Positions 21,379 to 28,851 of a DNA stretch of 64,000 bases are shown piece after piece. The stretch is from an uncultured Actinomycetota bacterium (lineage in GTDB: Bacteria; Actinomycetota; Actinomycetes; Propionibacteriales; Nocardioidaceae), in NCBI GenBank assembly GCA_963750265.1, contig CAVVQG010000015.1:8858-72857 (forward strand), in the 5' to 3' direction. A program made the translations under genes and the position numbers. Numbering within the stretch: the first letter of the stretch is position 1; the number at the start of each line of letters is the position of its first letter. The notes below the pieces were generated by a model. That model was given only the letters and a program-made list of their open reading frames with translations, did no database searches and was not told the DNA's origin.

Positions 21379-23128
21379 ATGCGTATGTCCCGGATGTTCC
21401 TGCGAACCCTGCGAGACGATCCGGCCGACGCCGAGGTCCCGAGCCACCGTCTGCTGGCGCGAGCGGGTTATGTGCGCCGAGTCGCACCAGGCATCTATTC
21501 CTGGCTGCCGTTGGGTCTGAAGGTGCTGGCCAAGGTGGAGCGCATCATCCGCGAGGAGATGGAGTCGATCGGCTCGCAGGAAGTGCGGTTCCCCGCCCTG
21601 CTGCCGCGCGAGCCGTACGAGATCTCCGGCCGTTGGACGGACTATGGGCCCAACGTGTTTCGGCTCAAGGACCGCAAGGGCAACGACATGATGCTCGGTC
21701 CGACGCACGAAGAGTTCTTCACGCTGCTGGTCAAGGACCTCTACTCGTCGTACAAGGACCTGCCGCTCAGCCTCTATCAGATCCAGACGAAGTACCGCGA
21801 CGAAGCGCGTCCCCGCGCCGGCATCCTGCGCGGTCGCGAGTTCATCATGAAGGACTCCTACTCGTTCGACATCGACGATGCCGGGCTTGAGGTGTCCTAC
21901 CAGGCGCACCGCGAGGCGTACGTACGCATCTTCGAGCGCCTCGGCTTCGAGTACGTCATCGTCAAGGCCACCTCGGGCGCGATGGGCGGATCGGCGAGCG
22001 AGGAGTTCCTCGCAGTCTCCGAGACGGGCGAGGACACCTTCGTACGCTCGCCCGGCGGTTACGCAGCCAACGTCGAGGCCGTCACGACCGTCGCGCCCGA
22101 GCCCGATCCCGTACGACGACGCACCTGCGGCGCACGCCGAGCAGACGCCTGACACGCCCACGATCGACACGCTCGTGGATCACCTCAACGAGAGGTTCCC
22201 TCGCGAGGATCGCCCGTGGGCGGCCAGCGACACGCTCAAGAACGTCCTCGTGATCCTGCGCCACCCCGACGGCACCCGTGAGCCGGTCGCGATCGGCCTG
22301 CCGGGTGACCGTGAGGTCGACGCCAAGCGTCTGGAGGCCCAGGTCGCGCCGGCAGAGGTCGAGCCGTTCGAGGAAAAGGACTTCGCGGCGAACCCGGGCC
22401 TGGTCAAGGGCTACATCGGACCGGGGGCGCTCGGCACCGAGGGCAGCACGGGCATCCGCTACCTGACCGACCCCCGGGTCGTCGAGGGCACGCGCTGGGT
22501 GACCGGTGCCAACGTGCAGGGTTCGCACGTCATCGATCTGGTCGCTGGGCGCGACTTCACTGCCGACGGCACGATCGAGGCCGCCGAGGTACGAGCCGGT
22601 GACGAGTCGCCAGATGGCTCGGGCCCGCTCGAGCTCGCGCGCGGCATCGAGATGGGGCACATCTTCCAGCTCGGGCGCCTCTACGCCGAGGCGCTCGGAC
22701 TCAAGGTGCTCGACGAAAACGGCAAGCTCGTCACGGTCACCATGGGCTCGTACGGCGTCGGCGTCTCGCGAGCTGTTGCCGCAGTCGCCGAGTACGCCCA
22801 CGACGAGCTCGGTCTGGTCTGGCCCCGCGAGCTCGCCCCATTTGCCGTGCACCTCGTGGCCGCCGGCAAGGACGAAGCTGTGCTGTCAGCCGCTGAGGAC
22901 GTCTACGCCGAGCTCATCGGCGCGGGACTCGAGGTGCTGTTCGACGATCGAGTCGGCAAGGTCTCGCCGGGCGTGAAGTTCAAGGACGCCGAGCTGATCG
23001 GTGTGCCCACGATCGTCGTGGTCGGCAAGGGCGTCGTCGACGGTGTGGTCGAGGTCAAGGACCGCGCCACCGGAGAGCGCACTGACGTGGCGATCGGCGA
23101 TGTCGTCGCACACGTGCAGGGCATGTGA
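21379..23128 (+). CDS. proS: Proline--tRNA ligase (frameshift ~22105)
   Basis: [23 protein letters not shown] in ORF 21379; [21 protein letters not shown] in ORF 21878. Confidence 0.95.
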
Positions 23129-23540: not shown

Positions 23541-24028
23541 GAGATGTCCCCGATAGTTCGTGACGCCTGGGCGAGACCTGCCGACATCGACGACAGGACG
23601 CGCGCGAGAGCCGGTGAGACGGCCCGTAGCGAGTCTTTGGCTCGCGCCGTGGACGCGCCGTCCAAGGTCTGCTCGAGGGCCTTCAGGGCGCGTGCAGGGT
23701 CGCTGTCGATGGCCTCCGCCGATGGGACACCGGACGGGCCGCCGACCGCGTCCACGTGCTCCTGACCGATCTTGGCGATGGGAGCGAGCGTGTTTGCCAG
23801 CTCGGGATGACGGGCACTGGTCAGCTCAATCTTGGCCAGCACGAGATTTTGCGCCTGGGCCACGGCAGCGATCAGTGTCTCGTCGCTGGCGACCGGACGG
23901 GGACGCGGTTTGATGCCGATCGAGTCGGCGATGTCGTCCAGCCGATGCGTCGCCGCACCGACGCCGACCGCGGCCGTCAGGGCCAGAGCGCCGGCGCCAG
24001 TCCCAAGCAGAGCGCGGCGGCTGATCAC
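23537..24028 (-). CDS. Tat-signal hypothetical protein (partner of DUF4439)
   Basis: SRRALL plus hydrophobic segment; ATGA overlap with DUF4439. Confidence 0.7.
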
Positions 24029-24119
24029 AACGGCAGGTTATCGACCAACGTTCGCTAAGGTAGAGGCGACACCGGGCACGGTGTCGACGTGCGTCACAAA
24101 AAAACAGGGAGGACGAGCC

Positions 24120-24572
24120 ATGAAGGAACGGCTGGAGACCCTCGTGAGTGAATGCGTGTCGACGCTTGGTCTTGATCTTGAGGCGGTCGAGCTCAGTGCG
24201 GGTGGCCGACGCAAGGTGCTGCGCATCGCCCTCGATGCCGATGGCGGAATCGGTATCGACCACATCACCGATGCGACGCGCGCGATCTCCGAAACTCTGG
24301 ACTCCTCCGATGTGATGGGCGCCGAGCCCTACACGCTCGAGGTCACCTCCCGTGGCGTCGACCGGCCGCTGACGCACCCGCGTCACTGGCGCCGCAATGC
24401 TGGGCGCCTGGTTCGGGTGACCCTCGAAGACGAGACCACGCTCGATGCCCGCATCGGCGACAGCGACGACACCGGTGTCGAGCTGACCACCAAGAAGGAC
24501 GCAACCCGCGTCTCATACGACCAGATCGTGACGGCACTCGTGCAGACCGAGCTGAACAGGAAGGACGCCTGA
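24120..24572 (+). CDS. rimP: Ribosome maturation factor RimP
   Basis: [14 protein letters not shown]; GGAGG RBS; first gene of the nusA operon. Confidence 0.95.
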
Positions 24573-25636
24573 TGGACATTGACATGGCAGCCCTGAGAGC
24601 GCTGGAGCACGAGAAGGGCATCTCGTTCGAGGTGGTCGTCGACGCGATCGAGACCGCCTTGCTCTCGGCGTATCACAAGACTTCGGGGTCATTCCCGAAT
24701 GCGCGGGTGGAGCTCAACCGCAAGAGCGGACACGTCATCGTGTGGGCCAAGGAGCGCCTGGCCGACGAGGACGTTCCCGTCGGCTCGGACGAACCCCTTG
24801 AGCGACCCGCTCCCCGTTTCACCGAAGAGTTCGAGCACACGCCCGACGACTTCGGCCGCTTCGCCGCGACGATCGCTCGCCAACTGATCATGCAGCGCAT
24901 TCGCGATGCCGAGGACGAGGCCAAGTACGGCGAGTTCTCCGGCCGCGTCGGCGATATCGTCTCGGGCGTCATTCAGCAGAGCCGGCCTGGCGACGTCGCG
25001 CTCGACCTGGGTCGTCTCGAGGCGATCCTGGTGGCCTCCGAGCGGGTGCCGGAGGAGAAGTACGCACACGGCGAGCGCCTCAAGGCCTATGTCTACGAGG
25101 TCGAGAAGGGCCTGCGCGGGCCCCGGGTCAAGGTGTCCCGTACGCATCCCAACCTGGTGAAGCTGCTGTTCGCTCTGGAGGCGCCCGAGATCGCCGACGG
25201 GTCCGTCGAGATCGTGGCGATAGCCCGTGAAGCCGGTCACCGGACCAAGATCGCGGTGCGGGCAAATGTGCCGGGCATCAACGCGAAGGGATCCTGCATC
25301 GGGCCGATGGGTTCACGGGTCCGCAATGTCATGCACGAACTGCACGGCGAGAAGATCGACATCGTTGACTACAGCGACGATCCGGCAGAGTTCATCGCGC
25401 ACGCGCTCTCGCCCTCGCAGGTCAAGGGTGTGACGCTGGTCGACCCGACCACACGCTCGGCGCGAGTCGTCGTTCCCGATTTCCAGTTGTCGCTCGCGAT
25501 CGGCAAGGAAGGGCAGAATGCGCGGCTCGCCGCAAAGCTGACCGGCTGGCGCATCGACATCCGCTCCGACACCGAGGTCCCCGCAGCAGGGGACGGCACG
25601 GGAACCGATGGCGCACCTGCCTCCCGAAACGGGTAG
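24572..25636 (+). CDS. nusA: Transcription termination/antitermination factor NusA
   Basis: S1 and KH domains: [43 protein letters not shown]. Confidence 0.97.
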
Positions 25637-25913
25637 ACTGACAGAGGTCCTTCGTACGTGCATCGGTTGTCGAGAGCGTGCGGACAAGACCACTCTGGTG
25701 CGAGTCGTCGCAGTGAAGGAGTCCACGGCAGTTGTCGTGGCGCCCGATCTGAGCCGTTCGTTGCCGGGTCGAGGGGCGCATCTTCACCCCACGGCACGGT
25801 GCCTGGAGCTCGCGACACGACGCAAGGCCTTCGGTCGGGCCCTTCGAATTGAAGGTCCGCTCGACCTGACACGGCTGAGCATCTTGATCGACGAATCAAC
25901 AACTGCTGAATGA
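25608..25913 (+). CDS. ylxR: YlxR (DUF448/RnpM) RNA-binding protein; start uncertain
   Basis: [22 protein letters not shown]. Confidence 0.88.
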
Positions 25914-26064
25914 CCACGAGGAGCGCACCCGCTCCCTGACCACGAATCGGAGCACCCCGCTCATGACGAACCGATGAGTACTCCCTGATGAGTACTGACC
26001 GATGAGTATGCACGTCAACTAGTGGTCTGATCCTTCTTCGGGTCGGACCCCCCGAAGGAGAAAA
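25910..26064 (+). promoter_or_regulatory. infB leader: chain of overlapping micro-ORFs plus alternative hairpins over the infB RBS
   Basis: uORFs 25910-25939, 25963-25977, 25974-25988, 25988-26005, 26002-26022, 26022-26030; hairpins 26024-26049 versus 26033-26060 (covers AAGGAG). Confidence 0.65.
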
Positions 26065-28851
26065 GTGGCTGTAAGAGTCCACGAGCTCGCCCGCGAGTTC
26101 GGTGTCGAGAGCAAAGTCGTCCTGTCCACCCTGAAAGACATGGGTGAGTACGTGAAGTCGGCTTCATCGACCGTCGAAGCGCCCGTCGTCCGTCGCCTCA
26201 CTGAGGAGCACGGCGATGCGCTGCGCGCCCAAGGTGCCAAGAAGTCCGGTGGCAAGGCGGCGGCCAAGAAGGCTGCCCCCGCGCCGGCGGAGACCGCTGC
26301 GACCGCTGAGGCCTCCACTGAGGAGTCCGCACCCGCTGCGGAGCCCGCGCCCGCTGCGGCCGCGACCCCCGGCCCCAAGCCCGGTCCGCGCGTCGCCCCC
26401 GCACCGGAGCAGCCTGCTGCAGAGGTGCCGGCCGAGGCGCCCGCCGCAGAAGCGCCGGCCGCAGAGGTCGAAGCTCCTGCCGCGGCTTCGGACGCACCCG
26501 CCGAGACCCCTGGCGCACCCGGAGGAGCCCGTCCCGGTCCCCGTGCGCCCGGCGCTGGTGGAGCGCGTCCCGGTAACAACCCGTTCTCATCGACGCAGGG
26601 CATGCAGCGCGCCCCGCGTCCGCCTGCCGCACGCGAAGGCGGAGCACCTGCTCCAGGCGTTCCCGGCATGCCACGACCCAACCCGGCGATGATGCCGCGT
26701 CAGTCCGGCCTCGGTGGCCCTCCCACGAGCCGCGATGCGGCACGTGGCGGCCCCGGTGGTTCACGTGGTGGCGCGCCCGGCCGCGGAGCACCCGGCGGGT
26801 TCGCCGGTCGCCCCGGCGGCGGTGGAGCGCCCGGTCGCGGTCCCGGTGGAGCACCCGGCGGTGGAGGCGGCTTCGGTCCGCCCCGCAGCGGTGGCGGTCC
26901 TGCCGGTCGCAACACCCGAGGCGGAACGCAGGGTGCATTCGGTCGCGCTGGTGGTCCGGTGCGTCGTGGACGCAAGAGCAAGCGCGCCAAGCGCCAGGAA
27001 TACGACCAGATGCAGGCGCCCGCAATCGGCGGCGTCCGCGTACGCAAGGGTGACGGCGAGAACGTACGTCTGACCCGTGGCTCGTCGCTCAGCGACTTCG
27101 CCGAGAAGATCGGCGTAGACGCAGCGTCGCTCGTCGAGGTGCTGTTCCACCTCGGTGAGATCGTCACGGCGACTCAGTCGGCCAACGACGAGACGCTGAT
27201 GCTGCTCGGTGAGGAGCTCAACTACACCGTTGAGATCATCTCGCCCGAGGACGAAGACCGCGAGCTGCTCGAGTCGTTCGACCTGGAGTTCGGTGAGCAC
27301 GAGGGTGATGACGATGACCTCGCGCCCCGTCCTCCGGTCGTCACGGTCATGGGTCACGTCGACCACGGAAAGACCAAGCTCCTCGACGCGCTGCGCAGCA
27401 GCAATGTCGTCGACAAGGAGGCCGGTGGCATCACGCAGACCATCGGCGCCTATCAGGTCGCCACCGAGGTCGACGGCACCGAGCGCAGGATCACCTTCAT
27501 CGACACACCCGGTCACGAGGCGTTCACCGCCATGCGAGCCCGTGGTGCACAGGCGACCGACATCGCGATCCTCGTGGTCGCCGCAGATGACGGCGTCATG
27601 CCCCAGACGGTCGAGGCGCTCAACCATGCCAAGGCCGCGGGTGTCCCGATCGTGGTCGCGGTCAACAAGGTCGACAAGCCTGACGCCGACCCGACCAAGG
27701 CGCGCGGTCAGCTGACCGAGTACGGACTGGTCCCGGAGGAGTACGGCGGCGACACGATGTTCGTCGACGTCTCGGCCAAGGCCGGCACGGGTCTCGACAC
27801 GTTGCTCGAGTCGATCATCCTCACGGCAGACGCCTCGCTCGACCTGCGCGCCAACCCCGACCAGAACGCCGAGGGTCTCGTCATCGAGGCGCACCTCGAC
27901 CGTGGTCGCGGCCCTGTCGCAACAGTGCTGGTTCACCGCGGAACCCTCAAGGTCGGCGACTCGATCGTCGCCGGTCCGGCCTTCGGTCGAGTCCGCGCTC
28001 TGCTCGACGAGCACGGCGAGAACATCGAGGAAGCCACACCGTCGCGTCCTGCGCTGGTGCTTGGTCTCACCGCGGTGCCGGGTGCAGGTGACAACTTCAT
28101 GGTCGTCGCCGACGATCGTCTTGCACGTCAGATCGCCGAGAAGCGTGAAGCACGTGAGCGCAACGCCCTCCTGGCGCAGCGCAGCGGTCGCCGGACGCTC
28201 GAGGACTTCATGTCATCGCTGGAGAAGGGCGAGACCGACGAGCTGCTCCTCATCATCAAGGGTGACGGTTCGGGTTCGGTCGAGGCACTCGAAGATGCCT
28301 TGGCGACGATCGATGTTGGCGAAGGTGTCGCCCTGCGCGTCATTGACCGCGGTGTCGGTGCCATCACCGAGACCAACGTCATGCTGGCCGCCGCATCCAA
28401 CGCCGTCATCATCGGCTTCAACGTCCGCCCGCAGGGCAAGGCGACGGAGGTCGCTGACCGCGAAGGCGTCGAGATCCGCTACTACTCGATCATCTACAAC
28501 GCGATCGAGGAGATCGAGGCATCGCTCAAGGGCCTGCTCAAGCCGGAGTTCGAGGAGGCGCAGCTCGGCACCGCCGAGATCCGCGACATCTTCCGCTCCA
28601 GCAAGATCGGCAACATCGCCGGCTGCATGGTCACCGGTGGCGTCATCAAGCGCAACGCCAAGGCACGGCTCCTGCGAGACAGCGCCGTCGTGGCCGAGAA
28701 CCTCGACCTCGGAAGCCTGCGTCGCGAGAAGGACGATGTGTCCGAGGTCCGCGAAGGCTTCGAGTGCGGCATCGTGCTCAAGGGCTACAACGACGTCAAG
28801 ATCGGCGATGTCATCGAGACATACGAAATGCGGGAAAAGGTTCGAGCCTGA
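26065..28851 (+). CDS. infB: Translation initiation factor IF-2
   Basis: RVHELA N-terminus, [20 protein letters not shown]; AAGGAG RBS. Confidence 0.98.

Follow-up and report, generated by a model that had tools for sequence, protein, structure and literature searches.

The 64,000-nt stretch of DNA analysed here (the window) carries, between ylxR and infB, a chain of stop/start-overlapping micro-ORFs followed by a predicted two-state hairpin, and together these point to a conserved cis-regulatory infB leader in which the relay of micro-ORFs likely measures re-initiation and efficient re-initiation is predicted to shut infB translation, a reading to which we assign a probability of roughly 0.55. 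Sequence comparison supports the view that the chain is a conserved, class-wide infB element apparently built for termination and re-initiation. The leader appears to work like a leader-ORF translational attenuator that has no stalling peptide and takes serial termination-re-initiation as its input. A first-pass annotation of the window had proposed the chain as a candidate re-initiation sensor for IF2 autoregulation; absent from that reading were the output and its sign, for which RNA folding now predicts that a ribosome arriving at the end of the chain would repress.

Anatomy of the micro-ORF relay

The window has the gene order rimP-nusA-ylxR-infB-rbfA, and all of the micro-ORFs fall within the 151-nt intergenic region that runs from the ylxR stop (25913) to the infB GTG (26065; all features given here lie on the + strand). 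The upstream ORF, called at 25608-25913 with an uncertain start codon, is a ylxR/RnpM-like gene (over the cut-off for Pfam YlxR; E 8.5e-14, below the cut-off, for NCBIfam RnpM), and the downstream gene, infB (26065-28851), encodes translation initiation factor IF2 (TIGR00487, E 3e-228, above the cut-off) and has a GTG start preceded by a Shine-Dalgarno sequence (SD), AAGGAG, at 26055-26060. Elsewhere in the window, proS (21379-23128) is split over two overlapping frames, as ORFs of 257 aa and 416 aa, probably because sequencing or assembly introduced a frameshift.

Every micro-ORF coordinate in the first-pass annotation agrees with the sequence, as does the repeat it described: the unit GATGAGTA stands at 25973, 25987 and 26001, and its three ATGs occupy three frames. 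The relay opens with uORF1 (MTNR*, 25963-25977), whose SD (GGAG, 25949-25952; duplex -5.8 kcal/mol) is the putative entry point and lies within a genus-invariant CGGAGC..GCTCATG block. An ATGA link leads to uORF2 (MSTP*, 25974-25988), which reads MSTHR* in the sister loci L002 and L003; a TGATG link leads to uORF3 (MSTDR*, 25988-26005); and a second ATGA link leads to the last uORF (MSMHVN*, 26002-26022), which like uORF3 has no SD and whose stop stands at the foot of a hairpin, P1. The usual relay consists of three ORFs of 4, 5 and 6 codons, the class modes for the counterparts of uORF1, uORF3 and the last uORF, and the window and two sister species carry uORF2 as one additional 14-nt unit.

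The two flanking ORFs that had been counted into the chain proved incidental. MTTRSAPAP* (25910-25939) starts on the ylxR stop (TGA at 25911-25913) and GTG-GTC-TGA (VV*, 26022-26030) follows a TAGTG link and reads through the P1 5' arm; because the overlap of the former and the link of the latter each occur in 8/24 genus loci, we place the conserved relay at 25963-26022, a core of four ORFs. MTTRSAPAP* is left outside the chain because a 23-nt gap follows it, and VV* is missing from the sister locus L003. Dinucleotide shuffles of the 151-nt intergenic region (n = 10,000) yielded a five-ORF chain 4 times and a chain of at least four ORFs 35 times. Both strands of the window's own genome (4.58 Mb, 66% complete) contain no other chain of at least four ATG micro-ORFs, and two unrelated three-ORF chains lie elsewhere in it.

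Rfam covariance models gave no match in 24000-28000 at E up to 5. A promoter/terminator scan returned no promoter in the leader region and no terminator-like site in 25500-26300, so the hairpin and U run of an intrinsic terminator or attenuator were not found there. Two smaller structures are predicted near the relay entrance. The uORF1 SD sits inside a 4-bp GAGC/GCTC mini-hairpin in the genus-invariant block (25948-25965), which may tune relay entry. Hairpin P0 (25920-25935), just 3' of the ylxR stop and overlain by MTTRSAPAP*, is predicted at this position in most of the 24 genus loci (L001-L022, L026 and L160) with widely different arm sequences; its possible role is to shield the relay from ribosomes that have finished ylxR.

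Conservation across Actinomycetes and signs of re-initiation

We collected 250 ylxR-anchored loci, 239 of which included an IF2 N-terminus (173 from the same class, 66 from other classes); 7/180 same-class and 4/70 other-class loci were left out because the stretch examined lacked an IF2 N-terminus. Five of these seven same-class loci were recovered later, and in the other two, L097 and L130, the relay can be recognised by eye. The sample comprises the ylxR matches listed, so that 16/201 class-draw genomes with no ylxR match fall outside it, and one of the 173 loci is the window's own, while two others are copies within a single genome. Chains of at least three linked ORFs within 170 nt of the infB start were present in 169/173 Actinomycetes leaders, as against 1/66 other-class leaders and 242/17,300 shuffles, counts that overstate significance because related genomes are not independent. 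The first-pass annotation had suggested looking across Actinomycetota for chains that persist while their peptides drift; this pattern holds in the class Actinomycetes and is all but absent from the 66 loci sampled in the other classes of the phylum.

Several loci depart from the usual form. L087 and L114 fail the strict chain rule, and by eye their frame is kept, either by means of a CTG start or across a 2-nt gap, the CTG being the apparent start at the L087 link. In L074, L087, L117, L114 and L097 the last relay ORF has grown to more than 20 codons, with its stop still at the hairpin foot. In L097 (G049:C12:640642-641702) the infB start and N-terminal domain appear to be missing right after the SD, possibly through assembly collapse in a repetitive N-terminus.

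The element is tied to infB. A 19-nt core pattern run against all species genomes gave 120 matches in 3/64 parts (about 2,800 estimated), of which 119 sit 91-140 nt 5' of an IF2 N-terminal motif with chains of 3-4 ORFs. These matches take in Streptomyces, Kitasatospora, Actinomadura and Nocardioides, and the named Nocardioides leaders match the IF2 start of the sister genus, which makes Nocardioidaceae the likely family of the window; its genus may be Aeromicrobium. In five genomes of one family (L120, L122, L134, L152, L161 / L371-L375) other DNA follows ylxR and infB lies ~2.5-3.3 kb downstream of it or, in one genome, on another contig; the relay accompanies infB in 5/5. These genomes bear on the view that the relay is a three-frame stop barrier, or a non-functional tandem duplication, that does no more than stop read-through from ylxR. 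The ylxR frame does end over the first micro-ORF start in 43/167 loci and at a later link in about 17 more, which means that in such lineages the relay could be supplied with ribosomes from ylxR, and the three TGAs do lie in three frames. We nevertheless consider this view scarcely credible, since a start codon is retained at each TGA, the relay stays beside infB once separated from ylxR, and a two-state hairpin follows it at a fixed offset; the first two points led us to reject a three-frame barrier for ylxR.

The first-pass inference of a termination-re-initiation design is supported by the way in which the relay varies. Its links are RTGA (-4 overlap) in 331/340 cases and TGATG-type (-1 overlap) in 9/340, consecutive ATGA spacings follow 3n+2 in 295/335, and insertions come as whole units or multiples of three (for example in L002, L005, L019 and L074). 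Middle ORFs range from 3 to 26 codons with linkage kept and last ORFs from 2 to 39, and the last stop may be any of the three (TAG in 76 loci, TAA in 57, TGA in 38). A frame test that makes no use of chain logic, with 17 loci not scored, showed that 151/178 of the stop triplets immediately before P1 share the frame of the last ATGA. An A precedes TGA in 492/602 cases in the relay zone versus 29/281 upstream. SDs of -5 kcal/mol or stronger precede the first uORF in 126 of 169 loci, a middle ORF in 8, the last in none and infB in all 169, by energies computed with a generic anti-SD, the window's 66% complete genome having yielded no 16S rRNA 3' end. This pattern suggests a single entry point, inner ORFs that depend on re-initiation, and independent initiation at infB.

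Some base preferences exceed what the overlaps impose, and we count them against the relay-switch model: CGA precedes 255/340 links versus 58/269 genomic overlaps, and Ser is favoured as second codon beyond what the overlap forces (AGY in 342/511 versus 63/269). Together with the modal spacings of 11 and 14 nt, they would suit repeats (CRAUGAGY) to which an RNA-binding protein attaches (YlxR, NusA or IF2, for instance), with the ORFs a by-product. We hold this to be very unlikely, as the frame survives the long insertions in L002, L005, L019 and L074, the terminal stop may be any of the three and stays in frame, GTG replaces ATG at 57/511 relay starts, and SDs fall where a relay predicts them. 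Neither a conserved stalling peptide nor a stretch of sensor codons was found in the relay peptides, which drift except for the M-S/T..R imposed by the overlaps.

Published data from M. tuberculosis touch on the same element. Smith et al. (2022) give MSTP* there as a putative novel leaderless ORF that overlaps the Rv2840c stop, 89 nt 5' of the annotated infB start, in a list of transcription starts at RUG codons that does not in itself prove translation of MSTP* (PMC9094748). The first-pass annotation had looked to retapamulin profiling for a peak at each start; the Ribo-RET tables of that study list none for the later uORFs, nor for infB at its annotated start (PMC9094748). None would be expected at the later uORFs, because the drug would block the relay at its first step. 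Given the drug action set out in the same source (PMC9094748), retapamulin profiling likely misleads at such an element, trapping ribosomes at the first ATG and hiding starts that depend on re-initiation.

A predicted two-state hairpin between relay and infB

The chain does not lead right up to infB, as had first been thought: its last conserved stop lies 42 nt upstream of the infB start, at the foot of a two-state hairpin, and the corresponding distance is 33-66 nt in 168/171 loci. Coupling is nearly abolished at distances of about 20 nt (PMC10666635), and we judge direct delivery of ribosomes from relay to infB unlikely because the gap exceeds this range; the overlap, or spacing well under 20 nt, that coupling would call for was not found in these 168 loci.

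Between the two lie mutually exclusive predicted helices. P1 (26024-26049; 26024-33 with 26040-49; -16.8 kcal/mol) would leave the infB SD free, as the ON state, and P2 (26033-26060; 26033-42 with 26051-60; -16.3 kcal/mol) would mask it, as the OFF state. Both folds form in 24/24 genus loci, with energies at most about 6 kcal/mol apart. Over these loci the outer six pairs of P1 are paired in 143/144 cells, with a compensatory G-C/A-U swap in 6, and the nine pairs of P2 in 205/216, with a compensatory A-U pair in 4. The leader has two features of a leader-ORF attenuator, namely an SD of its own for uORF1 (in 126/169 loci) and, by computation, exclusive helices within reach of a leader ribosome, one of which masks the ribosome-binding site.

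The masking helix seems to be built from different sequences in different lineages. In most of the class the 3' arm of P1 (typically CCGGACC) is complementary to infB codons 3-5, and codon usage there is skewed: Arg5 is CGG in 89/104 loci versus 41/276 in IF2 codons 11-60, Val4 is GTG in 0/104 versus 83/614 in the background, and in several loci the synonymous base of the infB codons that pair with this arm has changed in a compensatory way. In the genus of the window IF2 starts MAVRV, which is unable to make the codon 3-5 pairing, and an anti-SD in the P1 loop is used instead. Six loci of a KPRV group, whose IF2 start likewise no longer pairs, also have a P1-loop anti-SD, of different sequence; P1 and P2 are near-equal in energy in both lineages.

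We modelled a ribosome at the last stop as a mask, removing the sequence up to d nt past that stop and computing the cost of opening the infB binding site. The median cost stays near 12 kcal/mol (11.8) through d = 2, reaches 16.0 at d = 8 and stands at 11.3 at d = 20. With d = 8 it rises by more than 1 kcal/mol in 130/168 loci and falls in 11, as compared with 124/504 up and 147/504 down for shuffled spacers under the same mask. In the window the cost goes from 5.1 to 17.4 kcal/mol and the probability of an open SD from 0.16 to 2e-7. Median effects by group are 9.4 (the genus), 8.2, 4.1, 3.7 and 2.9 kcal/mol, the last being the modest value for the largest group, where the effect exceeds 1 in 74/104 loci; it is 0.0 for two loci of the group that contains hairpin-less forms. 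Named genomes, mostly Streptomyces, replicate the direction (78 up and 5 down of 115; median 1.7 kcal/mol). In M. tuberculosis Ribo-seq, the footprints of terminating ribosomes end 12 nt past the stop codon (PMC9094748), and our mask peak at 8-10 nt fits such an edge if the 12 nt are counted from the first base of the stop.

The same calculations hold what can be said for a positive coupling, in which ribosomes completing the relay would either open up the leader or be passed on to infB, and relay throughput would raise IF2. Masks of at least 12 nt melt P2 and reopen the infB binding site in genus loci, so that the regulatory sign depends on the footprint edge. P2 is moreover the equilibrium (minimum free energy) fold of the window without a ribosome, where the probability of an open SD is 0.04 in long context, and the ON state would therefore depend on an unproven co-transcriptional trapping of P1; the computed barrier on the direct path between P1 and P2 is about 20 kcal/mol, as an upper bound. 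Three loci (L078, L094 and L100) have the relay, no hairpin and a last stop only 20-21 nt from the infB start, so close that a ribosome terminating there would itself lie over the SD or else be weakly coupled, and the overlap of the ylxR frame with the first micro-ORF start could likewise be taken this way. Even so, we think positive coupling quite unlikely: elsewhere the last stop is too far away for coupling (PMC10666635), infB owns a strong SD in every locus scored, footprint-sized masks close the site far more often than they open it, and in most of the class the masking helix is entirely out of the ribosome's reach.

A proposed circuit and its meaning

We therefore return to repression by efficient re-initiation, for which the following sequence of events can be proposed. 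A ribosome would enter at uORF1 through the SD of that ORF and could reach the SD-less later ORFs only through two or three rounds of termination and re-initiation. Each re-initiation would need fMet-tRNA and, by E. coli data, IF2; re-initiation in E. coli is reported to be promoted by IF2 and lowered by IF3 (PMC12548453). On the nascent mRNA P1 would fold first, leaving the strong infB SD open to ordinary initiation. A ribosome at the last stop would then cover the P1 5' arm and free its partner strand, which would pair with the SD in the genus and with infB codons 3-5 in most of the class. The ~20 kcal/mol barrier would make this a latch, such that IF2 made per mRNA drops as relay throughput rises. 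The outcome would be negative feedback through two or three multiplicative steps, with high initiation capacity repressing IF2 synthesis and low capacity releasing it. The first-pass annotation had taken the readout to scale as (re-initiation probability)^n; the exponent is small, at 3 steps here and 2 in most relatives.

That the sensed quantity is IF2 itself is something we infer. Very short ORFs are subject to factor-driven drop-off, and the same relay and repressive switch could instead respond to RRF/EF-G, RF2 at CGA-TGA, IF3, formylation, free 30S subunits or peptidyl-tRNA drop-off, infB then being the output of a general translation-state gauge. Every link needs TGA termination, recycling and re-initiation, CGA-TGA is strongly preferred at the links, and coupling is affected by IF3 and RRF (PMC12548453). 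We consider such an input unlikely, because the element is tied to infB alone (119/120 matches, and 5/5 once ylxR is separated), which autoregulation fits best. At somewhat short of even odds, then, we suggest that Actinomycetes autoregulate IF2 by a re-initiation counter, in which a completed serial chain latches the infB mRNA shut, a GCN4-like capacity gauge that would run from Streptomyces to Mycobacterium with its masking helix rebuilt from different sequences in separate lineages.

A close comparison is with the ermC and cat leaders, where a ribosome translating one short ORF determines which of the alternative helices forms, and one of these buries the SD of the gene downstream. The infB leader likewise has short ORFs and alternative helices, one predicted to mask an SD, but its ORFs number three or four and overlap in a chain, it lacks a conserved stalling peptide, and its ribosome would act at a stop codon; ribosome arrival is predicted to repress, and what is sensed would be how efficiently ribosomes re-initiate, in place of a drug or an amino acid. 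Yeast GCN4 also uses serial re-initiation over several uORFs, and infB is predicted to be made at low initiation capacity, the same sign, although the infB relay lacks long-range scanning, would act through an RNA switch and targets the initiation factor itself; the resemblance does not imply a common origin. Translation factors are known to autoregulate through mRNA design, as with the infC AUU start and the prfB frameshift. A further case of such design is the SD loop of bS21/rpsU (PMC13000453). The infB mRNA would similarly report the activity of its own product, through separate micro-ORFs and a switch rather than a codon inside the gene.

The relay links are the same -4/-1 overlaps as in ATGA/TGATG translational coupling (PMC6728339, PMC10666635, PMC12548453), whereas the relay is a series of 4-6-codon non-genes whose last ORF is uncoupled from infB by 42 nt and a hairpin. 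Ribosome termination structures, described as stable hairpins right after stop codons (bioRxiv 10.1101/2020.02.10.941153), resemble P0 (after ylxR) and P1 (after the last uORF), both of which could block re-initiation; P1 differs in having an exclusive, near-equal partner predicted to mask the SD that follows, something for which an insulator has no need. PMC2965389 mentions ermC and describes a terminator before rimP, a different element. The literature searched, with subscription journals and bioRxiv supplements beyond its scope, contains no description of an infB micro-ORF relay, in keeping with the earlier statement that no such system was known for infB, and likewise no IF2 translational feedback device and no bacterial sensor that uses chained re-initiation.

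The relay is a natural reporter for the disputed drivers of re-initiation (IF2, IF3 and RRF, on 30S or 70S), and at about 100 nt the element is open to predictable single-base tests. The gene that follows it is essential, the class that carries it counts antibiotic producers and mycobacteria among its members, and, if our reading is true, the element would constitute an undescribed feedback brake on the capacity of these cells to start protein synthesis.
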